Origin: Bacilli bacterium
GTDB lineage: Bacteria > Bacillota_I > Bacilli_A > ML615J-28 > CAG-313
Assembly: GCA_017501465.1 (NCBI GenBank)
Contig: JAFVWY010000012.1
Coordinates: forward strand, 10,191 to 74,190
DNA: 64,000 nucleotides
Direction of reading: 5' to 3'
A program made the position numbers and the translations under genes. This document shows positions 8,919-54,830 of this stretch, piece by piece; within the stretch, counting starts at the first letter, position 1, and every line of letters begins with the position of its first letter. The notes beneath the pieces were generated by a model, which saw only the letters and a program-made list of their open reading frames with translations, searched no databases and was not told where the DNA came from.

Positions 8919-9687
8919 CGACATTTTTAACTATATGACGTCATTGTATCCAATTGAATTTGCCTCAAATTTTGATATTGGCAAAGTTGGATTACAATTT
9001 GGTAGTATGGATGATACAGTTAATAAAGTAATTTTGTGTTTAGATATTACTGATGAGGTAATTGATGAGGCAATTAGTAAAGGTGTAAATTTGATTATCG
9101 CACATCATCCTTTTATGTTTACCCCTTTAGTAAATTTGAATTATGATTCAATTTTTGGTAAAAAATTACTTAAGATATTTAATAATCGGATAAATATTAT
9201 GGCTTTCCATACTAATTTTGACGTTGCAAATGAGGGTATGAATGATACACTATCAAAAAGACTTGGTTTAAAAAATATTAAAATGACAACTAATGAATTA
9301 GGTAGTGAAAGTTTTGTAAGAATCGGTGAATGTGAAAAAACAAATTTAAAAGATTATTGCTTAATTGTGAAAAAGGCATTCGCCTTAGATGTGGTAAGAG
9401 TGGCTGGAAATTTAAATAAAGAAATTACTAAAGTTGCAATAGTTGGTGGAAGCGGATCATCATCTTATCACGAAACGTTAAAAAATGGCGCAGATGTTTT
9501 TATAACTGGTCAAATACCTCATCATTTAGGTTTTGATGCGGTAGAAAACAATTTTGCTTTAATTGAAGTTTCGCACGGAATTGAGTTTTTTGGTGTAGAA
9601 ACAATGAAAAAACAATTAGAAGAACAGTTTAAGACAATTGAATTTATTATTACAAATTGTAATATGGATCCTTTTGTGGCTATATAG
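8896..9687 (+). CDS. Nif3-family dinuclear metal centre protein (YqfO-like)
   Basis: IAHHP and HxxxE..SHG pattern of NIF3 family; synteny after trmK. Confidence 0.8.
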   Translation: MIGMVKINDIFNYMTSLYPIEFASNFDIGKVGLQFGSMDDTVNKVILCLDITDEVIDEAISKGVNLIIAHHPFMFTPLVNLNYDSIFGKKLLKIFNNRINIMAFHTNFDVANEGMNDTLSKRLGLKNIKMTTNELGSESFVRIGECEKTNLKDYCLIVKKAFALDVVRVAGNLNKEITKVAIVGGSGSSSYHETLKNGADVFITGQIPHHLGFDAVENNFALIEVSHGIEFFGVETMKKQLEEQFKTIEFIITNCNMDPFVAI

Positions 9688-9696
9688 GAGGATAAT

Positions 9697-13830: not shown

Positions 13831-15786
13831 ATGGCTGAAAGTAAAAAAACTCCAGTATATGATGAGTCATCAATTCAGGTCTTAGAAGGATTAGAAGCTG
13901 TTAGAAAACGTCCTGGTATGTACATTGGATCTACTGATTCAAGAGGTTTACATCACTTAGTATGGGAAATAGTTGATAACGCTATTGATGAAGCGCTAGC
14001 AGGATATGGTTCACAAGTTGTGGTACGTATTAATGAAGACAATTCTGTTGAAGTTGCCGATAATGGGCGTGGTATTCCAACTGGTAAACATAAAAGTAAT
14101 GGCCTTCCAACACCTCAAGTTATTTTTAATACATTACACGCCGGTGGTAAGTTTGATGAATCTGGCGGTTATAAAGTATCAGGGGGGTTACACGGTGTAG
14201 GTTCATCGGTTGTTAATGCTTTAAGTGAATATTTAGAAGTAACTATTCATAGAGATGGAAAAATATATTACCAAAGATATTTAAATGGTGGTAAAACAAT
14301 TGAAAAACCAAAATGGCTAGGTGATACTAGAAGAACAGGTTCAATTATTAAGTTTAAGCCGGATCGTACAATTTTCTCAACTACTATTTTTGATTATAAA
14401 ACTATCGCAAAAAGATTAAGAGAATCTGCTTTCCTAATTAAAGGGTTAAGAATTGATTTAATTGATATGCGTTCAGGTCAACAAGAGACTTTTAGATTTG
14501 ATGAAGGTATTGTTGAATTTGTTAAAACCCTAAATCAAGGTAAAAAAGCCATTCATGAACCGACTTTCTTTGTTGGTACTGCAAGTAATATTTATATTGA
14601 AGCTTCTATTCAATATACACAAAACAATTATAGTGAAAATATTTTATCGTTTGTTAATAATATTAGAACAAATGATGGAGGTACTCATGAAGTTGGGTTT
14701 AGAAGTGCCATTACTAAAGCGGTGAATGAACATGCACGTTTAATTGGTGCATTAAAAGATAAAGATGCTAACTTAGAAGGTGCTGACGTTCGTGAAGGTT
14801 TAACTGGCGTCTTATCTATTCGTATCCCTGAAAACATTTTGCAATTTGAAGGACAAACAAAAAATAAACTAGGTACACCAGAAGCTAGGGTAGCAGTCGA
14901 AAACGTTGTTTCAGAAATGATGAAATTCTTCCTATCTGAAAATGGTGATATCGCTAATATTATTGTAAATAATGCTGTTAGGGCTTCAAAAGCACGTGAA
15001 GCCGCTAGAAAAGCAAGAGATGAACAAAGAAAAGTTAAACAAATCATCTCTAAACCAACTAATTTACTTGGAAAACTAACTCCGGCTCAATCAAATAACC
15101 CTAAGATTAATGAATTATTCCTAGTCGAAGGTAATTCAGCTGGCGGTAGTGCAAAACAAGGTAGAGATAGAACATTCCAAGCTGTTTTACCTTTACGAGG
15201 TAAAGTAATTAACTCAGAAAAGTCAAAAATCGAAGAAGTGTTAAAAAATGAAGAAATTATGATGATTATTAATGCGATTGGTGCAGGTATTGGAACTGAG
15301 TTTGATATTTCTAAAATTAATTATAATAGAATTATCATTATGACCGATGCCGATACCGATGGTGCGCATATCCAAATCCTATTACTTACTTTCTTCTATC
15401 GATTTATGCCTGAACTTGTAAAAGCGGGACATGTTTATATTGCAACTCCACCTCTTTATAAAATTTCATACAAGAATACTATAGAATATGCATGGAGCGA
15501 TGAAGAACTAAGAAATAAAATAGGTGCTCAAAAGAATGTTACTATTCAACGTTATAAAGGGCTAGGAGAAATGAATGCTGAACAATTATGGGAAACAACA
15601 ATGAATCCAGCTAAACGTACTTTAATTCAAGTTACGATTGGCGAAGAAGGTACTGCTGATGATCAAATTAGTACTTTAATGGGTGATGAAGTAGAACCTA
15701 GACGTGAATGGATTGAAAACCATGTGGTATTTGATTCAGAAGATAACTTTATTTTAGATGATGTGGAGGTCTATGGTGATGAGTGA
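13831..15786 (+). CDS. parE: DNA topoisomerase IV subunit B
   Basis: GHKL ATPase N-terminus, TOPRIM EGNSAGG / IMTDADTDGAHI; assigned ParE not GyrB from plsY-adjacent location and 651 aa size. Confidence 0.8.
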   Translation: MAESKKTPVYDESSIQVLEGLEAVRKRPGMYIGSTDSRGLHHLVWEIVDNAIDEALAGYGSQVVVRINEDNSVEVADNGRGIPTGKHKSNGLPTPQVIFNTLHAGGKFDESGGYKVSGGLHGVGSSVVNALSEYLEVTIHRDGKIYYQRYLNGGKTIEKPKWLGDTRRTGSIIKFKPDRTIFSTTIFDYKTIAKRLRESAFLIKGLRIDLIDMRSGQQETFRFDEGIVEFVKTLNQGKKAIHEPTFFVGTASNIYIEASIQYTQNNYSENILSFVNNIRTNDGGTHEVGFRSAITKAVNEHARLIGALKDKDANLEGADVREGLTGVLSIRIPENILQFEGQTKNKLGTPEARVAVENVVSEMMKFFLSENGDIANIIVNNAVRASKAREAARKARDEQRKVKQIISKPTNLLGKLTPAQSNNPKINELFLVEGNSAGGSAKQGRDRTFQAVLPLRGKVINSEKSKIEEVLKNEEIMMIINAIGAGIGTEFDISKINYNRIIIMTDADTDGAHIQILLLTFFYRFMPELVKAGHVYIATPPLYKISYKNTIEYAWSDEELRNKIGAQKNVTIQRYKGLGEMNAEQLWETTMNPAKRTLIQVTIGEEGTADDQISTLMGDEVEPRREWIENHVVFDSEDNFILDDVEVYGDE

Positions 15787-18268
15787 GCCTAAAAAATTAT
15801 CACAAATAATTGAACAATTTGCCACAGAAACTTTACTTCAAGAAAATTTAGAAGAAATTTTTGGCGACCGATTCGGAAGATATTCAAAATATATCATTCA
15901 AGAACGTGCTTTACCGGATGTTCGCGATGGATTAAAACCTGTTCAAAGAAGAATTTTATTTGCTTTATATAAATTAAAGATGTTCTCTGATAAACCTTAT
16001 AAAAAATCTGCTCGTTTAGTAGGTGAGGTTATTGGTAAGTATCACCCTCATGGCGATGTAGCTGTATATGATGCTGCAATAAGAATGAGTCAGGACTTTA
16101 AAATGTTAGTTCCATTAATTGATGTTCATGGAAATAATGGTAGTATTGATGGCGACCCAGCTGCTGCAATGCGTTATACTGAATGTCGTTTAAGTAAATA
16201 TGCGGAATATTTGCTACAAGATTTAGATAAGCGAACTGTAGGGTTAGTTCCTAACTTTGATGATGCTGAATTAGAACCTGTTGTATTACCAGCAAAATTT
16301 CCTAATTTACTTGTGAATGGTGCTACTGGTATTTCAGCAGGTTATGCTACGGATATCCCGCCACACAACCCAATTGAAGTTTTAGATGCTGTAATTGCAA
16401 AAATAGATAATCCAAAACTTACTGTTGATGAATTAATGGATATTATGAAAGGCCCTGATTTTCCAACTGGTGGTATTGTACAAGGTAGAAAGGAAATTAG
16501 AAAAGCTTTCCAAACAGGTCAAAGTAAAATTATCGTTCGTTCTAAAACAGAAATTGTTCCTGGCAAAAATGATAACAAAATTGTTGTTACAGAAATTCCT
16601 TATGAAGTAAATAAAGCATTACTTGTCAAAAAAATGAATGATATGCTTCTTGCTAAAGAAGTTGATGGCGTAAAAGCAATAAGAGATGAATCAGATAGAC
16701 AAGGTTTACGTATCGTAATTGATATACGTAAAGATGTTGATCCAGTTAAAATCTTAAATTTCTTATTTAAAACTACAGAATTACAAGCTAACTATTCATA
16801 CAACATGGTAGCTATTAGTAATGGTAGACCAATGGTTATGGGCGTATTAGATATTTTAGACGCCTACATTGCTCACCAAAAGGAAGTTATGACAAATCGT
16901 TGTAACTTTGAGTTACAAAAAGCTGAAAGAAGAGCTCACATTGTTGAAGGTTTAATTAGCATGGTATCTATTCTTGATGCTGTTATTAAGACTATTAGAA
17001 ATTCAACTAATAAACGTAACGCTAAAGAAAATATCATGACAAATTATCATTTTAGTGAAATTCAAGCTGATGCGATTGTTAATTTACAATTATATCGTTT
17101 AACAAATACAGATATTTTTGAACTTAGAACTGAAGCTAATGAATTAGAACAACAAATTAGAAGATTACATCACATTCTTGAAAGTAATCGAGCAATGATG
17201 AAAGCTATTAAAGACGAAATTCAAGAGACAAAATCTCATCTTCAATATGAAAGAAGAACACAAATTGAAGATGAAGTTAAAGATGTAACAATCGCTACAG
17301 AAGAACTAATTTCAAAAGAAGAAACAATGGTAATGATTACTTATCAAGGTTATATTAAACGTATGACTAAAAAAGCTTATTTAGCTTTACAAATGTCAGA
17401 TGAGCAACAAACAAAAGTTAAAGATGGTGACATTGTAACAGATGTTTATGAAGCTACAACAACTGATGTTTTAATTCAGTTTACTGATTTAGGTAATTAT
17501 GTATATTTGCCTTTATTTAAAATCCCTGAATGTAAACATAAAGATTTAGGTATCCATATTAGTACAATGATTGGTATGGAAACTAATGAAAGAGTTATTT
17601 TCTCAACGATTGTTAGTGACTTTAAAGCGGATAAGTATGCGTTGATTGCAACAAAAGATGGGTTAATAAAACGTATAAAACTTGAAAAATTAGAAGTTAA
17701 TAGATACTCTAAAGTTCTAAAGGCTACAAAATTGCGTGATGGCGATTATGTGGTTAGTGCTGATATTTGTACTGGCCGTGATGCTGAGGTTGTTATTGCA
17801 ACTAAAGAAGGTTATATGAATAGATATGATGCTGAAGAAATCAGTATTATTGAACCTGCTTCATTTGGTGTTAAAGCTATTGAAATGAAGAGTAGACCTA
17901 AAGATGAAGTTGTTTCAGCAAAATATGTAGGTGAAAAGGATATTATTCTATTGTTAACTAATCGTGGTAATATCAAACGTATGAGACCTGAAGAAATTGT
18001 TAAGGGTAAAAAGAACCACGTTGGTAAGATGTACTTGAAAGTTGTCCGTTCTAACTTACATGAAGCAATTGCGATGGATGTTATTAGACATAAAAACGCT
18101 AATTCAAATAGTATGAATTACATTGTTACTGATAAAGGCACAATTTTAATTGATTATACTGTATTAAGAATTGCGATTGCAGATAACGGAAGAAAGATGG
18201 TTCCAAATGATATGGGTACACCACTTGCTCTTGCAATTAATAGAAACAATAATGATTTAGAAATCTAA
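15758..18268 (+). CDS. parC: DNA topoisomerase IV subunit A
   Basis: Active-site region AAMRYTECRLS (Tyr), no obvious GyrA-box QRRGGKG in C-terminal domain; follows parE. Confidence 0.8.
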   Translation: MMWRSMVMSEPKKLSQIIEQFATETLLQENLEEIFGDRFGRYSKYIIQERALPDVRDGLKPVQRRILFALYKLKMFSDKPYKKSARLVGEVIGKYHPHGDVAVYDAAIRMSQDFKMLVPLIDVHGNNGSIDGDPAAAMRYTECRLSKYAEYLLQDLDKRTVGLVPNFDDAELEPVVLPAKFPNLLVNGATGISAGYATDIPPHNPIEVLDAVIAKIDNPKLTVDELMDIMKGPDFPTGGIVQGRKEIRKAFQTGQSKIIVRSKTEIVPGKNDNKIVVTEIPYEVNKALLVKKMNDMLLAKEVDGVKAIRDESDRQGLRIVIDIRKDVDPVKILNFLFKTTELQANYSYNMVAISNGRPMVMGVLDILDAYIAHQKEVMTNRCNFELQKAERRAHIVEGLISMVSILDAVIKTIRNSTNKRNAKENIMTNYHFSEIQADAIVNLQLYRLTNTDIFELRTEANELEQQIRRLHHILESNRAMMKAIKDEIQETKSHLQYERRTQIEDEVKDVTIATEELISKEETMVMITYQGYIKRMTKKAYLALQMSDEQQTKVKDGDIVTDVYEATTTDVLIQFTDLGNYVYLPLFKIPECKHKDLGIHISTMIGMETNERVIFSTIVSDFKADKYALIATKDGLIKRIKLEKLEVNRYSKVLKATKLRDGDYVVSADICTGRDAEVVIATKEGYMNRYDAEEISIIEPASFGVKAIEMKSRPKDEVVSAKYVGEKDIILLLTNRGNIKRMRPEEIVKGKKNHVGKMYLKVVRSNLHEAIAMDVIRHKNANSNSMNYIVTDKGTILIDYTVLRIAIADNGRKMVPNDMGTPLALAINRNNNDLEI

Positions 18269-18358: not shown

Positions 18359-20434
18359 TTGAGGTACACGAACATGTTTAAAATTGCAATTGATGGTCCG
18401 GCTGGAAGCGGAAAAAGTACTATTTCTAAGTTATTAAGTTCTAAACTTAATTTTGAACATATTGATACAGGTGCAATGTATCGAGCTATTACTTTGAAAG
18501 CTTTAAAATTAGGTATTAATTTAGAAAATGAAGATGAATATGATTTTTTAGACGATACTATAATCGAGTTGGATCACGATAAAATTTTTCTTGATGGTGT
18601 TGATGTTTCTAAAGAAATTAGAAGTGTAGAAGTTACTACTAATGCATCGACTCCTGCAAAACTTGGTCGTGTAAGAACTTGCTTAGTTGATTTACAAAGA
18701 AAAATCGCTGCAAGCAAAAATGTTATAATGGACGGAAGAGACATTGGTACAGTAGTTTTACCAAATGCTGATCTTAAGATTTATCTAGATGCTTCATGTG
18801 AATGTCGTGCTGAAAGAAGACGTTTAGAACGTTCACTTGCTGGTGTTGAAAAGTCTTTTGAAGAAACTCTTCAAGAAATTATTGTAAGAGATCATAAAGA
18901 TTCTACAAGAGCAATTAGTCCACTTAAAGTGGCAGACGATGCTATCGTCATTGATTCTTCAAACTTAACAATTGAAGAAGTTATAAATAAAATTATTGGG
19001 TTAGTAAACGAGAGGGTTAATAAAAGTATGAGTGAAAAAGTTATTACATTTACAGAAGGTCAAGAAGTAGTTGGAACTATTATCAATGTCAGCAAAGAAG
19101 CTATTTATATTGAACTAGAAGGTGAAAATAAAGCTGTAATTTATGATAATGATATGGCTGGCTATGTTGAAGGACAAAAATTACGTGATTATTATTTTGA
19201 AGGCGGAGAATTTAAAGGATTAGTAAAACAAATTACTAAGGACAATCGTTCAAATAAACCTTTATATATTTTATCAACTAAACTTTATAAAGCTCGTGAA
19301 GAAATTAAAGTTTTTGATGAATTAAAAGAAAAAGATGAAATTATTAAAGCGAAAGTTATTCATGTAAGTAATGCCGGTTGTGATTTATTATATAAAGGAC
19401 ATGATGATATTAAAGTATTCTTACCTGCAAAAAATATTTATTTAAATGAAAAAGCTTTACACTCATTAAGAGGCGAAATGATTGATGTTGTTGTAACTAA
19501 TGTTGATCATGAACAAATCAAAGTAATCGTTTCACATTCTGCGGCTCAATCAAAAATAAGAAAAGCTGCTAAAGAAGCTGCTTACAACGCTTTACAAGTG
19601 GGAGATGTAGTTGAAGGTGTAGTTGATTCAGTTACTGATTTTGGTGCATTTGTTAAATTGGGTGAATTAACTGGTTTATTACATCGTTCTGAATTAGATC
19701 ATAAACTTGTTAGAAACGTTAGTGATCAAGTAAAAGTTGGTCAAAACATTACTGTTAAAGTAATTAAATTAGAAGAAGGTAAAATCGGTTTATCAGTTCG
19801 TGCTTTAACTCCACATCCATGGGATGTTTTAAAAGAACAATACCATGTTGGTGATGTATTTGAAGGTACTGTTGTTAAAATCATTAATGCTGGTTTAATT
19901 ATTAAATTAACTGAAGAATACTCAGGATTAATGCCAAATGTTGAATTTTCATGGCGTACAAATGAACGTATTGAAGGTAACGTAAATGAAGGCGATACTA
20001 TCAAAGTTCAAGTAATGGCTATTGATAATAATAAGAAAAAAGTTAGTTTATCACACAGAGCAACTGTTGAAAATTTATGGGCCAATATCAATATTAAACC
20101 TGGAACAGTTATTAATGTTGAAATTGCTGCTATTCAAGAAAAAGGTGCAGTTGTTAATTACGAAACTATTTCTGGTTTCTTACCTGTTAATGAAGTTACT
20201 GATGCAAAACGCATTGGTAAAGTAGATGAAGTTTATCCAGTAGGAACAAAAGTTGACGCAATCGTTTTAGAATGCGATCCAGGAAGAGCTAAACTTGTTG
20301 TAAGTGTTAAAAAATTAGAAAACCAAAAAGAACGTGCTGAATTCGACCGTTTCTTAGAAAAACAAGAAAGTGAAACTCCATCAACTACTCTTGCTGATTT
20401 ACTAGGAGAATCTTTAAAGAAATTTTCTGAATAA
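18359..20434 (+). CDS. Cytidylate kinase fused in frame to ribosomal protein S1 (Cmk::RpsA)
   Basis: N-terminal IAIDGPAGSGKST P-loop Cmk (~220 aa) continuing without stop into ~470 aa with four S1 OB-fold repeats; likely start MFKIAIDG at 18374. Confidence 0.75.
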   Translation: MRYTNMFKIAIDGPAGSGKSTISKLLSSKLNFEHIDTGAMYRAITLKALKLGINLENEDEYDFLDDTIIELDHDKIFLDGVDVSKEIRSVEVTTNASTPAKLGRVRTCLVDLQRKIAASKNVIMDGRDIGTVVLPNADLKIYLDASCECRAERRRLERSLAGVEKSFEETLQEIIVRDHKDSTRAISPLKVADDAIVIDSSNLTIEEVINKIIGLVNERVNKSMSEKVITFTEGQEVVGTIINVSKEAIYIELEGENKAVIYDNDMAGYVEGQKLRDYYFEGGEFKGLVKQITKDNRSNKPLYILSTKLYKAREEIKVFDELKEKDEIIKAKVIHVSNAGCDLLYKGHDDIKVFLPAKNIYLNEKALHSLRGEMIDVVVTNVDHEQIKVIVSHSAAQSKIRKAAKEAAYNALQVGDVVEGVVDSVTDFGAFVKLGELTGLLHRSELDHKLVRNVSDQVKVGQNITVKVIKLEEGKIGLSVRALTPHPWDVLKEQYHVGDVFEGTVVKIINAGLIIKLTEEYSGLMPNVEFSWRTNERIEGNVNEGDTIKVQVMAIDNNKKKVSLSHRATVENLWANINIKPGTVINVEIAAIQEKGAVVNYETISGFLPVNEVTDAKRIGKVDEVYPVGTKVDAIVLECDPGRAKLVVSVKKLENQKERAEFDRFLEKQESETPSTTLADLLGESLKKFSE

Positions 20435-27834: not shown

Positions 27835-28734
27835 ATGGAACATCTTATTAAAGAATATCAGTATTACTTACAAAGTGTTAAAATGATGAGTCAAAATAGT
27901 ATCCTATCATATATTAATGATGTTACTAACTATTTGAATTTCTTAATATCTAAATATCAAGTAGATGATATGGAAGATGTCGGCAGTGAAGAAATAAGAA
28001 GCTATCTTGCAAGCCTTAAGAAGAAAAAAATGTCTTCAGCTTCGATGAGTAGAAATTTATGTAGTGTTAAATCGTTTCATCGGTTTTTATATGAAGAACA
28101 GTATACGAAGAAAAATGTTTCTAAAGAAATTGCTGCTCCTAAAATGGAAAAAAAATTACCAACTGTTTTATCGGTTGATGAGGTCACTAAACTTTTAGAT
28201 ATTGTCCAAGGAGATAAACCTTTAGATAAAAGAAATCAGGCAATGTTAGAAATGATTTATGCAACAGGGCTACGTGTAAGTGAATTGTGTAATATTAAAA
28301 TTACTGATTTAAGATTTACATCCAAACAAATAAGAATATTTGGCAAAGGATCTAAAGAAAGAATAGTACCTATTAATGATTTTGCTTTAAAAAAGATTAG
28401 AACCTATATGTTAGAAGCTAGACCGATTTTGTTGGGAACAAAAAAAGATCAAGGTTTTCTATTCTTAAATAATCATGGTGAAGTAATTACTAGAGTTGGT
28501 TTTTTTAAAATTTTAAAAACTTTGTGTAGTGAAGCAGGAATTGAAAAAAATGTTTCTCCACATACCTTAAGACATTCTTATGCTACGCACTTATTAGAAG
28601 CAGGTGTAGATATTCGTTTGATTCAAGAGATGCTAGGACATGAAGATATTGCTACTACACAAATTTATACTCATTTGAGTTTAAATAAAATTAAGGAAGT
28701 CTATGGAATGGCTCATCCTAGACAGAAAGAGTAA
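27835..28734 (+). CDS. xerD: Tyrosine recombinase XerD (RipX-like)
   Basis: C-terminal catalytic box HTLRHSYATHLLEAGVDIRLIQEMLGHEDIATTQIYTH with R..HxxR..Y; N-terminal SAM-like core-binding domain; xerD-deoB synteny. Confidence 0.85.
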   Translation: MEHLIKEYQYYLQSVKMMSQNSILSYINDVTNYLNFLISKYQVDDMEDVGSEEIRSYLASLKKKKMSSASMSRNLCSVKSFHRFLYEEQYTKKNVSKEIAAPKMEKKLPTVLSVDEVTKLLDIVQGDKPLDKRNQAMLEMIYATGLRVSELCNIKITDLRFTSKQIRIFGKGSKERIVPINDFALKKIRTYMLEARPILLGTKKDQGFLFLNNHGEVITRVGFFKILKTLCSEAGIEKNVSPHTLRHSYATHLLEAGVDIRLIQEMLGHEDIATTQIYTHLSLNKIKEVYGMAHPRQKE

Positions 28735-28736
28735 AT

Positions 28737-29906
28737 ATGAAAACATTTAAAAAGATTGTTTTGATTGTTATGGACTCACTTGGTGTTGGTGAGGCGAGTG
28801 ATGCGGCTTTATATAATGATTTAGGCAGTAATACTCTTGGTAATATTGTTAAGCATTATCCTGACATAAAAATGCCTAATTTACAAAAACTTGGTATTAA
28901 TAGATTTTTAGATTCAAAAGCTTGTGGAGATGCTTTAACACTAGTTTTAGAAGAAATTAGCGTAGGTAAAGATACATTAACGGGTCACTTTGAAATGATG
29001 GGTTTGAAAGTTGATACTCCTTTTCCTTCATTTACCGAAACGGGTTTTCCTAAAGAATTAATTCAAAAAATTGAAGAATACTCTAAACGTAAAGTTATCG
29101 GTAATATCAGTGCAAGTGGTACTGAAATTATTAAAGACTTAGGAGAAGAACAATTAAAAACTGGTGCATTAATTGTTTATACTAGTGCTGATTCAGTATT
29201 ACAAATTGCCGCTCATGAAGAAATTATTCCTTTAACTGAATTATATGATATTTGTAAATATGTAAGAAAAATTACTATTGAAAATAAAGAATGGATGGTT
29301 GGTAGAATTATTGCTCGTCCATATCTTGGCAAAAATAAAGACGATTTTTATCGTACTACTAATAGACACGACTATGCTTTAAAACCTTTTGAGAAGACTG
29401 TTTTAAATACCTTAAGTGAAAATGGCTTTGATAGTATTGCTGTGGGAAAAATTAATGATATCTTTGATAATTATGGTATAACTGAATTTAGTTATACTAA
29501 AAATAATGAAGATGGTATGGATAAGACTTATAATTATCTACAAAAAGGCTTTAATGGATTGTGCTTTACTAATTTGGTTGATTTTGATGCTATTTATGGT
29601 CATCGCCGCAATGTGGTTGGTTATAAAGAGGCTATTGAAAGATTTGATATTAAATTAGGCGAATTATTAAAAATTATTGATGATGATACTTTATTAATGA
29701 TTACAGCTGATCATGGTAATGATCCGACCCACCATGGAACTGATCATACAAGAGAAAATGTCCCTTTAATTATGTATTATAATGGCGTTTGTGGTAAACA
29801 TTTAGGAAAATTTAAGTCATTTACGAATATTGGTAGTACAATACTTGAAAACTTTGGTCTTGGCAAAGGTTTATATGGGGAAGGCTTTAATAAATATTTT
29901 AAATAA
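28737..29906 (+). CDS. deoB: Phosphopentomutase
   Basis: Alkaline-phosphatase-like metalloenzyme motifs (VLIVMDSLG..., DHGND); 389 aa. Confidence 0.9.
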   Translation: MKTFKKIVLIVMDSLGVGEASDAALYNDLGSNTLGNIVKHYPDIKMPNLQKLGINRFLDSKACGDALTLVLEEISVGKDTLTGHFEMMGLKVDTPFPSFTETGFPKELIQKIEEYSKRKVIGNISASGTEIIKDLGEEQLKTGALIVYTSADSVLQIAAHEEIIPLTELYDICKYVRKITIENKEWMVGRIIARPYLGKNKDDFYRTTNRHDYALKPFEKTVLNTLSENGFDSIAVGKINDIFDNYGITEFSYTKNNEDGMDKTYNYLQKGFNGLCFTNLVDFDAIYGHRRNVVGYKEAIERFDIKLGELLKIIDDDTLLMITADHGNDPTHHGTDHTRENVPLIMYYNGVCGKHLGKFKSFTNIGSTILENFGLGKGLYGEGFNKYFK

Positions 29907-29921: not shown

Positions 29922-30833
29922 TTGTTTAAAACAGAATATTTAAAATTTGACGATAAAGTTGATTTGAAAGTTTATATTTGGACTCCAAATGAAGGAAATT
30001 TAAAAGGAACAGTTCAAATAGCACATGGAATGGCTGAACATTTAGAAAGATATAATGAATTTGCAATGTTTTTAAATAAACATGGTTATTTAGTTATAGG
30101 TGCTGATCATTATGGACACGGTGGTTCGGTCAAAGATGTTAATAAAATTGGTGTTGTTGTTGATTATGACTTTATGGAGGCTATTCTACAATCAATTTAT
30201 AAAGTTAGAATGAACTATCAAGAACTTTTTAAAGAAAAAGCGATTTTATTTGCTCACTCAATGGGTTCAATGGCTGCCCAAAGATACATTGAACTATATC
30301 CTAAACATTTTAATAAAGTTATTATATCTGGAACAGATTATCCTTTTGGTAAATACTTTTTTGCAAATCTACTTACTTTAGTTAACGGTAAAAAAGGTAG
30401 AATTGTTTATAGTAAGTTTATTGATAACTTAGGCGTTGGCAGTTTTAATAAGCGTTTTGAGAATGAAAAGACGAAAGTTGCCTGGTTAACAACTGATGAG
30501 GATATTCAATATAAATATTTAAATGATCCTTTATGTGGACAAATGTTTCCTGCCAACTATTATCATTCATTATCTAGATTATTGCTTGATTCTAAGAAGA
30601 TGAAAAATAGAAAACGTATAAATCCTCATTTAGAGGTTATGATAATCTCAGGAAAAGACGATCCGGTAGGTGGCTTCGGTAAAGGACCTGAAAAACTAGC
30701 TAAAGATTATTTGAAATTGGGACTGCATGTTCATAAGGTAATCTATCCAGCTGCAAGACATGAATGTTTAAATGAACAAGTTGATGTTAAAAATAAAGTA
30801 TTTAACGATATCATATCATTTATAAAAGACTAA
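29922..30833 (+). CDS. Alpha/beta hydrolase (lysophospholipase/monoacylglycerol lipase-like)
   Basis: HG oxyanion motif, nucleophile elbow AHSMGS, C-terminal D and H. Confidence 0.6.
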   Translation: MFKTEYLKFDDKVDLKVYIWTPNEGNLKGTVQIAHGMAEHLERYNEFAMFLNKHGYLVIGADHYGHGGSVKDVNKIGVVVDYDFMEAILQSIYKVRMNYQELFKEKAILFAHSMGSMAAQRYIELYPKHFNKVIISGTDYPFGKYFFANLLTLVNGKKGRIVYSKFIDNLGVGSFNKRFENEKTKVAWLTTDEDIQYKYLNDPLCGQMFPANYYHSLSRLLLDSKKMKNRKRINPHLEVMIISGKDDPVGGFGKGPEKLAKDYLKLGLHVHKVIYPAARHECLNEQVDVKNKVFNDIISFIKD

Positions 30834-30906: not shown

Positions 30907-31765
30907 AAAAGTCTGATTTTGAGCTTAAAATCAGGCTTATTTTTTATTATAAATGTAGCAAATAAGATGCTTAAAAATTGATTTTTGAGAGTTTGAATGG
31001 GTATTTAATAACATAAAAAAGTCTCAATTTACTATAGAACGGTTTTAATATATAAATTATTATTAAATAGTGCAAATCTTAAAATATTAAATGCAATTTA
31101 TACACTGTTAAATACTACTTAATAACAGGTTATAAACAGTTATCCAAAGTTATTTTATTTTCCATTTTATCGGCTTTTTGCCTAGATAATTAAGAAGTTA
31201 ACATAATATATATTATAGGAAGTAAAAGCAATATAGAAACAAACCAAATAAAACTATTTTTATTACTTCTTATCTTATCGATTATATAGTTTATTTGTCG
31301 ATTTTAATAGAAATATATAAAATAAACTAGCTCATTTTTTAAAACATGATTATGTTTAAAAATTTATCTTTAAGTAAAACTATCAATCAATTCTACTTCT
31401 TAATTATCAACCCTAAAAAACCTCCAAAATCGTTTTTTTATACTATTTTGAATAATTATTCATCTTCTTTAAAAGTCTCAAATTGAGCTTAAAAATGGCC
31501 TAATTTTTAAGTCTTAAAAAATAAAAAAATCTATTATAAAATATTAATTTATAATAGATCAATTGTTGTTTATAAACCCTTCTTAAAGAGTTTGAAATAT
31601 ATTTGATGAGTAAATATCTATATAAGATTCTGTTGTAAGGCTTATATAATATAAATAAAAAATCTACTTTTTGATAAAAACTATTTTTTAGTTTTTTAAA
31701 AAGTAGATAATTATGTTTTAAAAGCCTTCTGTGAGCGTTTGAAATCTTCCAAATGAGTAAATACT
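30907..31765. repeat. ORF-free AT-rich zone built of degenerate copies of a short repeat (AAAAGTCTCA-N-GAGC(G)TTTGAAAT...AATGAGTAAATA) plus an 11-bp inverted repeat
   Basis: Related copies at 30907-30947, 30987-31030, 31471-31510, 31578-31618, 31720-31765; IR ATCTACTTTTT/AAAAAGTAGAT at 31662-31708. Confidence 0.5.
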
Positions 31766-31797
31766 AATTTAAGTTTCTATAAAACGCTTTAACAAAG

Positions 31798-32613
31798 CTA
31801 AAAATTTAGTTTATTAGTTATTTTTAAGCCTAACTCGTCAGCGTATTGATATGCAAGTTTTGTATATTGATCATTAAAAGCTTCTACAGAATGTGAATCA
31901 TCATTAATGACAATAATCAGATCTGGATGATTATCTTGGAATTTTTTAATGACTTGCCAGAAAGGAATATACGGATATTTAAAAAGTTTAGAATCTAAAA
32001 TACCGTTATTTTTGAATACAGAGCTTCTAATACCATTTGCATTGAATTCTAACGCAACATGGTTTTTTAAAGCTGTTTCTGCGATTGAAATAGCGACATT
32101 TTCACATTGTTTAGTAAAACTTGGGTATCTATACATATACAATTCAGGATGAGCAAATATTTTGAATAATCCCGTTTCCATCGCGTTTAAAACCTTATTT
32201 TTATAAATCTCAATATCATCTTCATTAAAGTCGTATGAATAAGTACTTTTGTAATTACCATCTTTATAAATTTCATGTTGGCCTAGTACTAAATAGTCAA
32301 CTTTTTCCCTTAATGTGGTAATTCGAGATTGGTAATGGTCGTAATATTCTATTTCAAGCGCTGTGAGAACGGTTATTTGGTCATTATACTTCTTCTTTAG
32401 GTTGTTTAAGTCCTTAAGATAGACATTAATGAATTCATCTTCTGACATACGTCTTGATCTAAGTTTTAGTGTTAATTCATCACTAATTGGTCCATGATCA
32501 GAAATACCAATATGGCAAAATCCATCTTGAATGGCCTTTTGAATGTATTCTTCACTAGTTCCAGTCGCATGTTTACAAAGATAAATATGTGTATGATAAT
32601 TAGCAATTCGCAT
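31798..32613 (-). CDS. PHP-domain phosphoesterase, histidinol-phosphatase (HisJ/HisK) family
   Basis: N-terminal HTHIYLCKHATG, ISDHGP, EIEY, AHPEL, EFNANG, DDSH metal-ligand pattern; 271 aa. Confidence 0.6.
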   Translation of the reverse strand: MRIANYHTHIYLCKHATGTSEEYIQKAIQDGFCHIGISDHGPISDELTLKLRSRRMSEDEFINVYLKDLNNLKKKYNDQITVLTALEIEYYDHYQSRITTLREKVDYLVLGQHEIYKDGNYKSTYSYDFNEDDIEIYKNKVLNAMETGLFKIFAHPELYMYRYPSFTKQCENVAISIAETALKNHVALEFNANGIRSSVFKNNGILDSKLFKYPYIPFWQVIKKFQDNHPDLIIVINDDSHSVEAFNDQYTKLAYQYADELGLKITNKLNF

Positions 32614-32615
32614 TT

Positions 32616-33653
32616 CTATTCACCAACAACCCTTGATAAAGGAACATTTTCAGTATTTTTTCGCCATTTTGCACTTCGACCAGTTCCTAAAGGCATAATT
32701 ACGCCATCATCTCTTAATTTGTTTAAAACACGATTAATTGTCGCATCACTAACACCTGGATTTAATTCCCTAACATCATCTTTAGAAAAGAATTCAGGAA
32801 GTTTATAAATACTAGTTTCCACATTATCAGTTTTTAAACCTTTATTTTGGTATTCATATTTTTTAACATCTTCGTTTAATGTTTTATAAGCATCAATGAT
32901 AATATCAAAAATAACCTTACTAAATCCGGTAGCTTGGATAAAACCATCAAAATAGTTAATGCTAGCTTTTTTAATTTCATCTTCTATTATAGCGTATTTT
33001 TCATAGAAAAATTTGAATAAACTTTGATATTTAAACACAGTAATATTATTTCTACACATTGAATAATATAAAGATATTAAGGCTGCTAATTCATTTTCTG
33101 AATTAAAAGGTTGTAAATTAATTATATCTAAATATAATATTACACTCAAAATGATTGGTTCATATTTTTTATTATCAATAAATAATTGGTATTCATCTAA
33201 ACACTCATTTATTAATAAACGAACAGATTGTTTGATAATTCGTTTATTTACAACGGTATTGATTGTTTTATTATTATAATTAAATTTATGTTTACCATAG
33301 ATATGATTTAAGTATGATATTAATTCACCAGCATTTAAAGGATATCTAAGGGCATCGGTTTTAATAATTTGAAAGGTTGTTTTAATATTTTTAATGGCTT
33401 CTTCTTCTTTATTTTTGGGTTGAATATCTTTATTTAATAGTAAACGTATTCTATTATCTGTAACTTCTAGGCCTAAAATATGAGCAATATAGAAAGTATC
33501 TTCTAAAAGAGTCTTTTCTTCACTAATTTCTTTTAAAGTGCCTAATTTATCAAGGTATGTATCAGTTTTACCGATTTCTTTATAGGCATTTAACATTTGG
33601 ATTAATAATTCGGATGGTATAATATAATGATTTAAGTTTTCAAAATTACTCAT
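32616..33653 (-). CDS. Fic-fold-like protein with degenerate active-site motif and C-terminal winged-helix domain
   Basis: QPFNSENELAALI aligns to Fic HPFxDGNGRxxRLL with H, D, G, G, R all replaced; C-terminal ATINRVLNKLRDDGVIMPLGTGRSAKWRK wHTH. Confidence 0.35.
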   Translation of the reverse strand: MSNFENLNHYIIPSELLIQMLNAYKEIGKTDTYLDKLGTLKEISEEKTLLEDTFYIAHILGLEVTDNRIRLLLNKDIQPKNKEEEAIKNIKTTFQIIKTDALRYPLNAGELISYLNHIYGKHKFNYNNKTINTVVNKRIIKQSVRLLINECLDEYQLFIDNKKYEPIILSVILYLDIINLQPFNSENELAALISLYYSMCRNNITVFKYQSLFKFFYEKYAIIEDEIKKASINYFDGFIQATGFSKVIFDIIIDAYKTLNEDVKKYEYQNKGLKTDNVETSIYKLPEFFSKDDVRELNPGVSDATINRVLNKLRDDGVIMPLGTGRSAKWRKNTENVPLSRVVGE

Positions 33654-34256
33654 TTATAATACCCCTTTCTATTTTAGAATAATGACAACCACAATAGTTT
33701 TGTCGGTATAATTCATATTTTTTAGATAGTTCGATGGATTTTTGATATCCATTTTGTAGTTTAAAGTTAGAATAAATAAAAGGAACGTCAACAATTTTTG
33801 ATAATTCAAAGCCAATTTCGTTAATCCAAGTACTATTTTTATGTGGACTAATACTTAAAGTTGTTGTCCAATAATCATAGTTATGTTCTTTAGCATAGAG
33901 TGCTGTTTTATACATTCTCAATTTATAACAGTGATAGCAGCGAATGGATTTTTCTTTTAAATGTTCAAATCCTTTGATACTATTATAGAAGTTATAGGTG
34001 TATAAGGATCAATAATAACTTTTGATTCTGGGGTTAATATGTTTGCAATTCTGACTTGTTCTTCACTTCTTTTATTGAATTCTTCAATTGTATCTAGGTT
34101 ATCATTTGAATAGAAAACATCGACTTGAAAACCTTCTTTTAAAAGTTCAATACAAGCTGAACTACATGGTCCACAACAACTATGTAGAAGTATTTTTTTG
34201 TTGGTTTTATCTTGGATTAATGATAGTAATGATTTATAATCCAAAACGTTGTTCAT
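33646..34256 (-). pseudogene. queH: Epoxyqueuosine reductase QueH (DUF208) interrupted by a frameshift
   Basis: N-terminal ORF 33957-34256 carries LLHSCCGPCS; C-terminal ORF 33646-33921 carries RCYHCY (reading-frame extension), TTTLSISP and YCGCHYS; frames switch near 33995-34010 (IIDPY then YNFYNSIKGFEHLKEKSIRCYHC in the other frame). Confidence 0.6.
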
Positions 34257-35157
34257 TTTTACCTTCTTTCTTGAATAGTAATGGTACTAAAGCAATCCCT
34301 GCGAAAGACATTATAAAGTATCTTAACATATGGAAGAAATTATGATTTGGGAAAATAGCTTTTAAACCAGATTTTAATCCCAACACAATTCCTGCTCCTA
34401 TTAGTAATCTTAATGCTAAGAAACCAACGGGTACTTTGTGAGAGAAATTGATATATTTTTCTTCAATAAAGAAACCTAAAATAATTGCTAAATAAAGACC
34501 AAAACTTTTATATAAATCAGCAACTGCTAAATTATTGAAATTAATTATCATCGTAGGTAATGATAATAAAATAAAGACTAAGCTAATAATATAGTATTTT
34601 TTAGTGTGATTAATATTATCATACACACGATTTAATACTAAAGTAACTAACATTCCAACAAGTAAACCTACAATAACATCGCCTGGGAAATGAACCCCAA
34701 GATATAATCTAGTAATTGGAACAATAATTAAAGCAGCGATACATAAACCTTTAATCCACTTCTTCTTATTATTATAATAAATTGAAGTATAAATTGTTCC
34801 AGCATTTTGGCTATGGCCGCTAGGAAAACTTGTACCAGTTGAATTATCCATTGAGTCACTTAATTTTTTTAAGTGTTTATGTTCTTCAAATTGGAAAGGT
34901 CTTTTAGCAAGGAATAAAGACTTTAAAATGCCATTAATGATAAAAGAACTTCCTAAAATGAAGGCTAATTTTTTACCTAATTTTTTATCAACTAAGTAGT
35001 AAATAAATAAAATCATTGCAAAGACTATTTCCCCACTACCAAATTTAGATAGAATAAAAAATAGCATATTTAAAAAGTCATTAGCGATTTTGTCAAATGC
35101 TTCTAGTATTTTCCATTCTAGAGGGAATCGGTCTACAAAATAACTTAATACGTTCAT
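34234..35157 (-). CDS. PAP2-superfamily phosphatase (membrane, e.g. undecaprenyl-diphosphate/phosphatidylglycerophosphate phosphatase-like)
   Basis: KRPF, SFPSGHS, RLYLGVHFPGDV motifs with flanking TM helices. Confidence 0.65.
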   Translation of the reverse strand: MNVLSYFVDRFPLEWKILEAFDKIANDFLNMLFFILSKFGSGEIVFAMILFIYYLVDKKLGKKLAFILGSSFIINGILKSLFLAKRPFQFEEHKHLKKLSDSMDNSTGTSFPSGHSQNAGTIYTSIYYNNKKKWIKGLCIAALIIVPITRLYLGVHFPGDVIVGLLVGMLVTLVLNRVYDNINHTKKYYIISLVFILLSLPTMIINFNNLAVADLYKSFGLYLAIILGFFIEEKYINFSHKVPVGFLALRLLIGAGIVLGLKSGLKAIFPNHNFFHMLRYFIMSFAGIALVPLLFKKEGKNEQRFGL

Positions 35158-35159
35158 AA

Positions 35160-35918
35160 TTATGATCTCTTTCTAATGTTTTTTTCTTGTTTTGATAATG
35201 CAATTAATTGTTTAACTTCGTGAACAGTTAAATTTCTAACTTCACCTGATAGTAAATCTTTGGTTGTAACTACGCCAAATCTAGTTCTTGTTAATTTTTT
35301 TACAGGATGGTTAATTGCTAAAAACATGTTTTTAACTTGGTGATATTTACCTTCAGTGATAATTATTTTAATTAAACTAGAATTATGTTCTCTATCAACG
35401 GAAACTATTTCGACATAAGCCGGTAAGTAGCTAGTTCCTTTATATTCTAAACCATGAATTAAAGGGTTTAATTCTTTAAATTCAACCACTCCTTCTACTC
35501 TAGCTAAGTATTCTTTTTCAATGCCACTGCGAGGTCCTACCATATGATTCATAAATTCCCCATCATTAGTAAGTAGTAAGATACCTTTCGTATCGTAGTC
35601 TAATCGACCTACGGGGAATAGACGAAATTCTTTATAAATTTCAGGTAAAATATCGATAACTGTTTTGCGTTTATGTTCATCTTTAACAGAACATATAACA
35701 CTTTGCGGTTTATTAAGGGCAAGGTAAATTTTTTCTTCAACCTTAGTTATTAATTTATTATTAACTTTAATTTGATCTTTATCAGATACTAAGAAGCCCA
35801 TTTCAGTTACTACTTGGTCATTTACTTTAACTTGTCCAAGTTTAATTAATTCTTCTGCTTTTCTTCTTGATGCAATACCACTTGCAGCAATTCTTTTTTG
35901 TAATCTTTCCATAAACAT
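35160..35918 (-). CDS. rluB: 23S rRNA pseudouridine synthase, RluB/RsuA family
   Basis: N-terminal S4 domain (RLQKRIAASGIASRRKAEELI) and catalytic GRLDYDTKGILLLTNDGE. Confidence 0.8.
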   Translation of the reverse strand: MFMERLQKRIAASGIASRRKAEELIKLGQVKVNDQVVTEMGFLVSDKDQIKVNNKLITKVEEKIYLALNKPQSVICSVKDEHKRKTVIDILPEIYKEFRLFPVGRLDYDTKGILLLTNDGEFMNHMVGPRSGIEKEYLARVEGVVEFKELNPLIHGLEYKGTSYLPAYVEIVSVDREHNSSLIKIIITEGKYHQVKNMFLAINHPVKKLTRTRFGVVTTKDLLSGEVRNLTVHEVKQLIALSKQEKNIRKRS

Positions 35919-35980
35919 TTTTCTCCACTATAAATTATACTAGAAAAAAATCAAAATGTAAAATGTTAAATAAAAAAATA

Positions 35981-36051
35981 AAACCCCGTTTAGAGCGTTT
36001 GAGATTCATTAACTTGGTAATTAATCATCTCGAACGCTTAAAATGGGGTTT
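35981..36051. repeat. 71-bp palindromic repeat element (copy A): AAACCCC-GTTTAGAGCGTTTGAGAT-loop-ATCTCGAACGCTTAAAAT-GGGGTTT
   Basis: Long imperfect hairpin; near-identical reverse-complement copy at 44748-44819; half-copies in 30.9-31.8 kb zone. Confidence 0.65.
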
Positions 36052-36055
36052 CAAA

Positions 36056-44569: not shown

Positions 44570-44747
44570 GAACTATTCCTCCTTCTATATTATTTTAAGA
44601 CACGCCATTAAGGTATAAGTCATTACTTATTTTACGTAACCTTTTCAGTGCGGTTGCCATATCGCAACATACATATTATACAATATTACTCATTTTTTTG
44701 CAAGTGTTATGTTAATTAAATTTGTATATAAAAGTATGTTTATCTTT

Positions 44748-54574: not shown

Positions 54575-54830
54575 AACCTCCTAATCAATAAAAAAAAGTC
54601 CCTAAGAATAACTCTTAAGGACGAAATAATCCGCGGTACCACCTTAATTAAAACAAATTAATGTTTTCACTTAATTAACTGTTAACGCCAGTGTACGTTC
54701 AATTCTACTACGATTTCAAATTGACTTCTCCAAGGCTACCTTCAAAATAACAATATGAAGTTTCACACCAAACAACTTCTCTCTGGAATATCGTTTATTT
54801 TTACTCTTCCTCTTCTTTGAATTTAGATAG
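54575..54830 (-). promoter_or_regulatory. T-box riboswitch leader for valS
   Basis: Minus-strand GGTGGTACCGCGG (plus 54631-54643), followed by terminator hairpin GTCCTTAAGAG..CTCTTAGGGAC plus U-run (54596-54622). Confidence 0.65.

Follow-up and report, generated by a model that had tools for sequence, protein, structure and literature searches.

A core chromosomal family of degenerate Fic-fold proteins with a winged helix-turn-helix and, in part of its range, a PHP phosphoesterase partner

Fic proteins have been studied almost only as enzymes, namely as AMPylators, toxins, effectors and defence proteins. The subject of this study is a pair of genes from a Bacilli bacterium (GenBank contig JAFVWY010000012.1), and all positions refer to the 64,000-nucleotide stretch of that contig that was analysed, hereafter called the window. 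The first open reading frame (ORF; 32616..33653, minus strand) encodes a Fic-fold protein of 345 amino acids (aa) with a C-terminal winged helix-turn-helix (wHTH), hereafter called pFic. The second (31798..32613, minus strand), identified by its match to Pfam PHP, encodes a 271-aa PHP-family phosphoesterase with a predicted trinuclear metal site, of the HisJ/HisK structural branch, hereafter called PHP. pFic represents an uncharacterized, vertically inherited family that combines a class-II-type Fic (Fido) architecture with a dead active site. The architecture is known from class II Fic proteins with a wHTH; the dead core family, with its PHP partner, is new. Neither the dead branch nor its pairing with PHP was found described in the literature or among curated families, as had been supposed in an earlier reading of the locus made from its letters alone (the sequence-only reading), and NCBI and RefSeq records label the members of the family 'hypothetical protein'.

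As modelled, pFic begins with a helical region, which is followed by a Fic core bearing a beta-hairpin flap and, at the C-terminus, by a winged helix. The same three-part architecture is found in SoFic (3EQX/3ZEC), Coxiella CbFic2 (8CIL) and Yersinia CccR. Proteins of this group are active transferases of adenosine monophosphate (AMP) held under an inhibitory Glu, with histone H3 and FtsZ among the targets and abortive infection as the role of SoFic (PMC10628234; PMC12249575). SoFic and CbFic2 dimerise via the N-terminal helix, the wHTH of CbFic2 binds DNA, and CccR represses transcription from its own promoter (PMC10628234); the last two observations support a DNA-binding role for the wHTH of pFic. 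Unlike these proteins, the pFic family is core-chromosomal and limited to Acholeplasma-, Izemoplasma- and RF39-like Bacilli, and by the sequences of its members it is catalytically dead. The closest solved relative is 8UQU, a Fic family protein from Bordetella bronchiseptica, with a Foldseek template modelling (TM) score of 0.85 on the Fic part. It is of the same length class (366 aa) and has a similar wHTH wing (GKGRGAKW versus GTGRSAKW in pFic), but it retains the full HPFPDGNGRMSR motif and the inhibitory SNRLEG, whereas pFic keeps only P, F and N of the former and has Leu at the inhibitory Glu. No literature on 8UQU, a structural-genomics entry, was found.

Active Fic toxins from diverse bacteria AMPylate GyrB and ParE, with Tyr109 as the ParE residue (PMC7479194). 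FicT, of the FicT/FicA pairs, has the Fic fold in common with pFic and acts on the ATPase subunit of gyrase or of topoisomerase IV. It differs from pFic in being a short class I toxin that depends on the catalytic His, lacks a wHTH and is paired with a separate antitoxin. A specific relationship between pFic and FicT was not found in their sequences, the link being positional only: because pFic is encoded next to parE-parC in most lineages, a retained ability to bind ParE is conceivable. Bartonella BepC acts without catalysis and Pseudomonas AvrB has none of the catalytic residues (PMC7842960), and both are precedents for a Fic fold that acts by binding. They differ from pFic in being secreted, host-targeting effectors that lack a wHTH, and BepC retains HxFxKGNGRxxR.

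A Fic fold with a degenerate active site

The structure of pFic was predicted with AlphaFold2 (AF2) from an alignment of homologues, with a predicted local distance difference test (pLDDT) score of 87.9, a predicted TM (pTM) score of 0.76 and the flap hairpin at residues 130-143. When this model was compared with the PDB using Foldseek, the top 50 matches were all Fic proteins (E down to 5e-9), headed by 8UQU, 4RGL, CbFic2 (8CIL) and SoFic (3EQX), and the alignments to 4RGL, 8CIL, 3ZEC and 3EQX were full-length and included the wHTH. Sequence comparison gave the same assignment, with 8UQU matched by phmmer at E=1.2e-15 over residues 48-333 and by a profile of 32 homologues at E=1.1e-43 over residues 19-333. 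Pfam Fic gave no match to the window pFic at E<=0.1, and thus none at the gathering threshold of PF02661; the only Pfam matches, to DUF6744 and a DIP2311-like wHTH, were below threshold. PF02661 was matched at E<=0.01 by eight of the 32 aligned family members (best 2.5e-5), and precomputed PF02661 annotations among the homologues were confined to a distant, Terrisporobacter-type group. The family thus belongs to the Fic/Fido superfamily at the level of the fold, on both structural and profile evidence, and the Fic pattern that the sequence-only reading had recognised in the 345-aa protein is borne out.

The canonical Fic motif is HPFx[D/E]GN[G/K]RxxR, and AMP transfer was judged by HxFx[D/E]GN[G/K]RxxR with the catalytic His. 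In pFic the corresponding segment, QPFNSENELAAL (residues 181-192; 33078..33113, minus strand), faces HPFPDGNGRMSRL of 8UQU in the phmmer alignment, where it reads QPFNSEN-ELAAL. Relative to 8UQU, H is replaced by Q, D by S, G by E and the two Arg by E and A, the second G is deleted and N is kept, so that P, F and N are the sole survivors of the canonical motif. Across the family the catalytic His, the Mg-binding acid, the GNG anion hole, both Arg and the Glu of the inhibitory helix are lost. This helix is defined in class II proteins by (S/T)xxxE(G/N), a pattern that pFic lacks: SNRLEG of 8UQU faces I56-A-H-I-L60-G61, and Leu is also the family consensus at the Glu position.

The motif was degenerate in all 32 aligned homologues, and no canonical motif was found in the pFic copies of 89 related loci. 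It reads x-P-F-x-x-x-N in the motif-region matches listed for 80 of these 89. A His at the catalytic position occurs in a single related locus (L087), the residue elsewhere varying among Q, K, A, S, N and E. The family comprises at least 308 clusters at E<=1e-30 and 50% identity, and 96 homologues were retrieved in one homologue search. In a search of 1.84 billion representatives, relatives with a canonical IHPFNDGNGR appeared only at E of about 1e-56 and weaker, and the dead family ranked above them. The proposal that the catalytic His and the GNGR cradle had been lost therefore holds against 8UQU and throughout the family, and we infer from the sequence that pFic cannot AMPylate. Within the 8UQU-like Fic-wHTH clade, several further proteins among the top 150 matches (for example, P0329, P0336, P0344 and P0361) lack only the catalytic His and keep GNGR or GNAR, with motifs such as IRPFPNGNGRVA, IVPFDKGNGRMV and ITPFGEGNGRIS; because of these, loss of the catalytic site seems to have been repeated in that clade.

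Variant Fic sites are used by Doc and AnkX, and pFic might in the same way retain a non-canonical enzyme activity through other residues. Fic folds support several chemistries (PMC5033356), and in the pFic family the flap hairpin, an S-x-R in the flap region and the P, F and N of the motif are conserved. Such an activity is nevertheless very improbable: the residue in place of the catalytic His varies from member to member, the anion hole has lost one Gly, non-basic residues stand in place of both Arg, and no part of pFic is less conserved than the Fic core.

The most conserved part of pFic is the wHTH (residues 286-333; 32655..32798, minus strand), with a mean top-residue frequency of 0.74 compared to 0.45 for the Fic core in 86 sequences. 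Secondary structure assigned by DSSP to the AF2 model shows helices at residues 291-297 and 303-315 and strands at 319-321 and 329-332. T305, I306, R308, I319, G325, R326, S327, A328 and W330 are invariant, and the recognition helix and wing are near-invariant as S-T-I-N-R-x-L ... P-L-G-[KT]-G-R-S-A-K-W (PLGTGRSAKW in the window protein). Weak matches of the C-terminus were to Pfam DIP2311-like_C and HTH_Crp_2 and to the PADLOC AbiEi and SoFic models. A C-terminal wHTH of the GxGRSxxY type had been proposed earlier; the predicted structure supports the wHTH, and the Tyr does not stand, since the wing GTGRSAKW has Trp.

The PHP phosphoesterase and its pairing with pFic

The product of the second gene is a member of the PHP superfamily, with a match to Pfam PHP (PF02811) of 54.6 bits against a cut-off of 26.4 (E=2.1e-14). 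Its predicted metal ligands, H7, H9, H15, H40, E87, H113, H155, D239 and H241, are invariant in 23 homologues, as is D39, these residues having been assigned from the HxH, CxHA, DH and DxH motifs without superposition. The AF2 model (pLDDT 93.8) was closest in Foldseek to the histidinol-phosphate phosphatases (HPPs) 3DCP/6NLR, 2YXO and 4GYF, with query-normalised TM scores of 0.68-0.74, ahead of YcdX, the PHP domain of PolX and then CpsB/YwqE. With HisJ/HisK proteins of known structure (2YXO, 3DCP/6NLR, 4GYF) it shares the (beta/alpha)7 barrel and the HxH, CxHA, DH, E, H, H and DxH ligands. It differs from them in scoring below the curated HisJ thresholds, in having no his-operon context and in its operon with pFic. 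Identity as a CpsB/YwqE tyrosine phosphatase was rejected on TM scores of 0.47-0.48 against 0.68-0.74 for the HPPs, and no CpsB-type Pfam or NCBIfam match was obtained. The protein had been read from sequence as a HisJ/HisK-type PHP enzyme without histidine-biosynthesis neighbours, and both parts of that description agree with the structural branch and with the gene content of the window.

It was considered whether PHP is simply the histidinol-phosphate phosphatase (HisJ/HisK) of the organism, next to pFic without functional meaning. Its best structural and profile matches are indeed authentic or putative HPPs (3DCP, 4GYF, and 2YXO at E=1.8e-18 with the family profile), and the HxH...CxHA and NxxGxR motifs are common to PHP and the Thermus thermophilus HPP. 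Yet the scores fall below the cut-offs of all the NCBIfam HisJ models (TIGR01856, 71.2 against 90.2 bits; NF005996, 65.5 against 133; NF005596, 83.1 against 202), neither the window nor about 90 related loci yielded a his gene, and this PHP subfamily was always found directly after pFic, with overlapping codons, in three upstream contexts. This explanation was judged improbable. By fold PHP remains nearest to the HPPs, and from its sequence it is best described as a HisJ/HisK-branch phosphoesterase that has a predicted intact active site and is not demonstrably a HisJ. In Terrisporobacter mayombei (CP101637.1; L009, 6001-13038) a distant pFic-like protein (24-25% identity) with the dead motif SPFKEDNLAMSKIL, annotated 'Fic family protein', is encoded two genes upstream of a hisZ-G-C-B-H-A-F operon, a curious position given the HisJ-like partner in the family of the window.

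The pairing was found from both sides. A search that began with pFic homologues found PHP directly after pFic in relatives with as little as 37-40% protein identity; in an independent search that began with three PHP homologues (37-43% identity), each of the three was preceded by an overlapping ORF of 342-357 aa, the size of pFic, without a Pfam match. Conservation of the neighbourhood, on which the earlier proposal of a module depended, is thus supported. Across 37 loci the PHP start lies at a median of -8 nt from the pFic stop (range -23 to +12), and wherever PHP occurs the two genes are coupled by overlapping or abutting codons. The pair is kept behind three upstream genes, parC, PAP2/queH and miaA. 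Where enough sequence lies downstream, PHP is the next gene after pFic in 32 of 78 loci, and it follows pFic in 16 of 49 fully flanked species loci. In Izemoplasma and Liberiplasma pFic is followed by nadC-argS-recJ or a phosphoribosyltransferase (PRTase) gene without PHP, and in Acholeplasmataceae by a convergent TetR gene. As about two thirds of lineages lack PHP beside pFic, PHP is not essential to pFic function.

In the window both ORFs are real and lie on the minus strand, with a junction of GGT GAA TAG AA ATG CGA, and thus with the 2-nt spacing first reported. A Shine-Dalgarno sequence, AAAGGGG, stands about 8 nt ahead of the pFic ATG and is retained in relatives. It lies within the 3' end of queH (epoxyqueuosine reductase; 33646..34256, minus strand), which overlaps the pFic start. 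The pseudogene noted in this stretch is queH itself, which is split by a frameshift into two ORFs covering Pfam QueH positions 1-65 and 91-174, one base near 34000 being missing in an alignment with the intact queH of two related loci (L001 and L010). Either queH is a genuine pseudogene here or the base was lost in the assembly of this metagenome-assembled genome (MAG); the break is uninformative on whether the locus is accessory. Further upstream on the minus strand are the ORFs of a PAP2 phosphatase (34234..35157; Pfam PAP2) and a rluB-like pseudouridine synthase (35160..35918). Their junctions are overlaps or 2-nt gaps, their order is the same in relatives, and a spacer upstream of rluB (35919-36055) contains a terminator and promoter-like sequence. 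Because of this close spacing, pFic and PHP would form the tail of a packed unit of rluB, PAP2, the broken queH, pFic and PHP; of the two-gene operon originally proposed, the pairing stands and the free-standing status does not. Beyond PHP lies an intrinsic terminator (31652..31708, minus strand), predicted by RNA folding of 31640-31800 (minus) as a long A/U-rich hairpin, AUCUACUUUUU...AAAAAGUAGAU, with the U tract UUUUUUAUUU behind it (z-score of -3.5 against shuffled sequences).

Chromosomal setting of the pFic family

A scan of one genome per GTDB species recovered 203 species loci that encode a pFic relative, from Bacilli MAGs, Acholeplasmatales, Izemoplasmatales, Anaeroplasmataceae and Liberiplasma; RF39-like Bacilli are also among the carriers, together with Acholeplasma- and Izemoplasma-like ones. 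Mariniplasma anaerobium (WP_176240150.1) and Liberiplasma polymorphum are cultured carriers, and the NCBI protein with 100% identity has the locus tag IKC22_04150 (Bacilli bacterium). In the clade of the window the gene order is miaA-dac-rluB-PAP2-(queH)-pFic-PHP, facing hyd4-deoB-xerD, and this synteny is common to relatives down to 37-40% protein identity. In the window the facing genes are on the plus strand: xerD (27835..28734; NCBIfam XerD, 348.7 bits against a cut-off of 329.6), deoB (28737..29906; its homologues in related loci are annotated with Pfam Metalloenzyme) and hyd4, an alpha/beta hydrolase (29922..30833; Pfam Hydrolase_4). These three genes converge on pFic-PHP across a putative dif site, and the block recurs in relatives.

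The sign of the GC skew changes at about 31 kb, and genes converge there. Between hyd4 and PHP lies an AT-rich gap of 965 bp. Within it, at 31196..31223 on the minus strand, the sequence ACTTCCTATAATATATATTATGTTAACT has two mismatches to the Bacillus subtilis dif as printed in PMC3025954 and is unique in the window at up to five mismatches. A dif site, where XerCD resolve chromosome dimers, was taken to be a unique 28-bp sequence with two inverted 11-bp arms and a 6-bp spacer, located at the GC-skew switch in a genome encoding a Xer recombinase. The site at 31196-31223 is unique and lies at the skew switch, with xerD 2.5 kb away and above its NCBIfam cut-off; it is the predicted dif, and the AT-rich stretch is the predicted replication terminus. 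It lies 575 bp past the PHP stop. The same dif, in the same orientation to pFic, is found downstream of pFic or pFic-PHP in 35 related loci, and in loci without PHP it is as near as 58-281 bp after the pFic stop.

Several other features of the gap were noted. The flank of dif toward hyd4 (about 31100-31195), on the side of the XerD arm only, is conserved, and is found at the same position in 33 related loci. It contains the box AGGYAAWAWGC(c)GATAA, some 14 nt away from dif, and, at 50-100 nt, strand-specific words resembling DnaA boxes (TGTGGATAA, TGTTGATAAC, TGTTTATAAC), of which two or three often follow each other in phase at 10-11 nt; that 50-nt bin held 22 matches in the 33 loci, compared with 0.2 per kb in the background. 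We know of no description of this flank. Clusters of such words near pFic but without a detected dif were seen only in L049 and, upstream, in L067, where they resemble a dispersed hairpin repeat or chance occurrences, and they were discarded. A 65-nt direct repeat, D1 (31567-31631 and 31714-31778), lies within a tandem duplication downstream of PHP (31527-31778, 147-nt period, 72% identity over 65 nt). It was rejected as a conserved element, being absent in relatives and not repeated elsewhere in the window, and represents a local duplication of a box and the A/U-rich terminator hairpin. Rfam gave no match above threshold in the gap (best SSRC41, 28 bits against a cut-off of 60). Elsewhere in the window, cis-regulatory RNAs were found as a T-box leader (54614-54826, minus strand; 154 bits) and an L21 leader (44588-44665, minus strand; 38.5 bits).

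The repeat-rich stretch around the pair had been taken for accessory DNA, and the pair for a possible toxin-antitoxin-like or defence-type module in which a pseudo-Fic adaptor would act with a phosphoesterase effector. The first idea does not survive: in about 200 species the locus belongs to the syntenic core and has been passed on vertically, the AT-rich gap is the predicted terminus with its dif, and an origin as accessory or mobile DNA is ruled out by this synteny, by a native GC content (0.25 for pFic, 0.30 for PHP, 0.287 for the window), by the absence of PHROGs matches to the locus and by the lack of close phage or plasmid homologues. No close homologue of pFic was found in phage records. 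The sole match at family level labelled as a plasmid is pAa22_1 of Mariniplasma anaerobium (NZ_AP024413.1; L094), a 12,782-bp circle with the gene order yneF-plsY-parE-parC-nucleoside kinase-pFic-tsf, in which pFic, annotated 'hypothetical protein', stands among genes that are chromosomal and essential; the record is a chromosomal contig closed in error or else a remarkable mini-replicon. No mobile-element genes flank pFic-PHP.

The defence or toxin-antitoxin reading is largely refuted as well, and of the explanations considered it was given the least credence. In its favour, Fic proteins are frequent toxins of toxin-antitoxin systems and include the defence protein SoFic (PMC12249575), more distant relatives of pFic (<=27% identity) are common on Bacillus plasmids, and PADLOC reported a SoFic match. 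That match is partial, at 18 bits (E 3.6e-4), and covers only the C-terminal wHTH part, and the only other PADLOC match, to AbiEi, has 14 bits. SoFic and FicT act by AMPylation (PMC12249575, PMC7479194), whereas pFic lacks the catalytic motif. No small partner or antitoxin ORF is conserved at pFic, whose neighbours are queH upstream and the 271-aa PHP downstream. With a dead motif and no small antitoxin the locus does not belong to FicTA; with a partial match, no motif and core synteny it does not belong to the SoFic defence systems. It is instead an inherited core chromosomal pair beside the replication terminus.

The most persistent neighbour of pFic is topoisomerase IV. Among 75 loci with at least 2.5 kb of upstream sequence, parC lies upstream of pFic on the same strand in 56 and is directly adjacent in 48. 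Of 62 loci, 28 have a gap of at most 30 nt between the parC stop and the pFic start and 26 have one of 78-141 nt; in eight another gene, usually for a nucleoside kinase, intervenes. Of the 49 fully flanked species loci, 41 have parC upstream (with pFic within 2.2 kb and usually as the next gene), 18, including the window, have dif within 3 kb downstream, ten have both, and none has neither. NCBIfam confirms Gram-positive ParE and ParC in the window (parE, 13831..15786, plus strand, parE_Gpos at 933 bits against a cut-off of 900; parC, 15758..18268, plus strand, parC_Gpos at 928 bits against 813) and in the Acholeplasmataceae copy. Directly after parC the window carries, at 18359-20434 on the plus strand, a 691-aa ORF with a complete cytidylate kinase (residues 9-217) and S1 repeats, which looks like a cmk-rpsA gene fusion.

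In Izemoplasmatales (L068 and others) the spacer between parC and pFic is about 140 nt long and conserved in layout, with a terminator hairpin, AAAGTAGC...GCTACTTTTT, followed by a promoter-like TTG...TAGTAAAAT element; because these separate the two genes, pFic has its own promoter in Izemoplasma. Another, conserved hairpin between parC and pFic, GAGAAGATTAAT...ATTAATCTTCTC, was examined as a pFic operator or RNA element and rejected. It proved to be one of a set of repeats dispersed among intergenic regions of some relatives, and the window has nothing more than a weak relative of it; it therefore lacks specificity for pFic. The repeat is a palindrome of about 50 nt, (c)tttcTGAGAAGATTAWT...GGGTAATT...ATTAATCTTCTC, resembling repetitive extragenic palindromic (REP) elements, and occurs in L019, L020, L025 (for example, 8049-9850), L027, L031, L041, L042, L045 and L054, with six copies in L025, five in L031 and four in L045; in several species a copy lies between parC and pFic, and in others up to six copies are spread around the terminus region. 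The weak relative in the window lies at 35985-36045 (minus strand), in the dac-rluB terminator.

Possible roles of pFic

The reading favoured here, with moderate confidence, is that pFic is a non-catalytic, DNA-binding pseudo-Fic protein with a housekeeping role tied to chromosome topology or segregation, or to regulation of its gene neighbourhood, and that PHP is an accessory partner. pFic would be a sequence-specific DNA-binding pseudoenzyme, probably dimeric like SoFic and CbFic2, whose dead Fic domain would serve as a protein- or ligand-binding module. It would act in chromosome topology or segregation or in the regulation of the parEC/dif neighbourhood, and PHP would be an accessory phosphoesterase in part of the family. 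A housekeeping role is argued for by the persistent position of pFic with the topoisomerase IV genes and the dif/xerD terminus, a position that suggests a link to topoisomerase IV or the terminus.

Several points weigh against this interpretation. The evidence on pFic function consists of gene position and domain conservation. In the window itself pFic lies 13 kb from parC, and parE-parC are on the other replichore arm, 13 kb from dif. The gene-order counts are phylogenetically non-independent, and the adjacency of parC and pFic could be a frozen accident, because plsY-parE-parC is an old and stable Firmicute block. Co-transcription with parEC is not universal, given the terminator and promoter of Izemoplasma and the nadC-argS-recJ genes downstream, and PHP is absent beside pFic in about two thirds of lineages. 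The conserved P-F-N remnant may also leave room for an unorthodox ligand-binding or catalytic role.

The main rival is that pFic is an ordinary transcription factor whose Fic domain senses a nucleotide or phospho-sugar and whose wHTH represses its own operon or genes of nucleotide, phosphoribosyl pyrophosphate (PRPP) or histidine-type metabolism, with PHP as a regulated enzyme and the parC and dif associations as inherited synteny. Auto-repression is known for the Fic-wHTH protein CccR (PMC10628234), and the promoter of pFic in Izemoplasma is consistent with such a role. So are the frequent nucleotide- or PRPP-related neighbours of pFic, namely the HisJ-like PHP, nadC, PRTase, nucleoside kinase and deoB, and the position of the distant Terrisporobacter homologue near a his operon. 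However, no conserved operator was identified, and the canonical ligand site is destroyed, because the GNGR cradle and the Mg ligand are gone. Moreover, the downstream neighbours vary by lineage, whereas parC or dif is always present in the 49 flanked loci. This alternative was considered possible but less likely than the favoured reading.

A bolder version of the favoured housekeeping role can be drawn from the Fic toxins. As active toxins target Tyr109 of ParE and pFic is encoded after parE-parC, pFic may have kept the ability to dock on ParE. It would then be a lineage-specific chromosome-maintenance factor of wall-less and reduced Bacilli that docks on targets of the ParE/GyrB type, binds terminus sites through its wHTH and positions or modulates topoisomerase IV, XerD at dif, or both. 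Candidate binding sites would be the conserved motifs flanking dif, such as the AGGYAAWAWGC and TGTKGATAA words, and PHP would cleave a DNA- or protein-linked phosphate, for example in stalled phosphotyrosyl adducts, and not histidinol phosphate. In this specific form the proposal is speculative, and its being correct throughout seems rather doubtful.

What is apparent is that a widely distributed family, with at least 308 clusters at 50% identity and about 200 species, has discarded every catalytic residue while its wing has remained under strong constraint. The fixed address of the family beside the topoisomerase IV genes, dif/xerD or both was unexpected. Should the positional link reflect inherited synteny only, an unannotated core family of pseudo-Fic regulators and a HisJ-like PHP would remain, a result of modest value and mainly for annotation. 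To our knowledge, little experimental work seems to exist on bacteria of the Acholeplasma, Izemoplasma and RF39 types. Because of its fixed address, and because ParE is a known target of Fic toxins, the pFic family is a case in which the conversion of an enzyme into a pseudoenzyme adaptor of chromosome biology can be put to the test. If the link is real, pFic would be a candidate for a missing decatenation or dimer-resolution factor in these bacteria.

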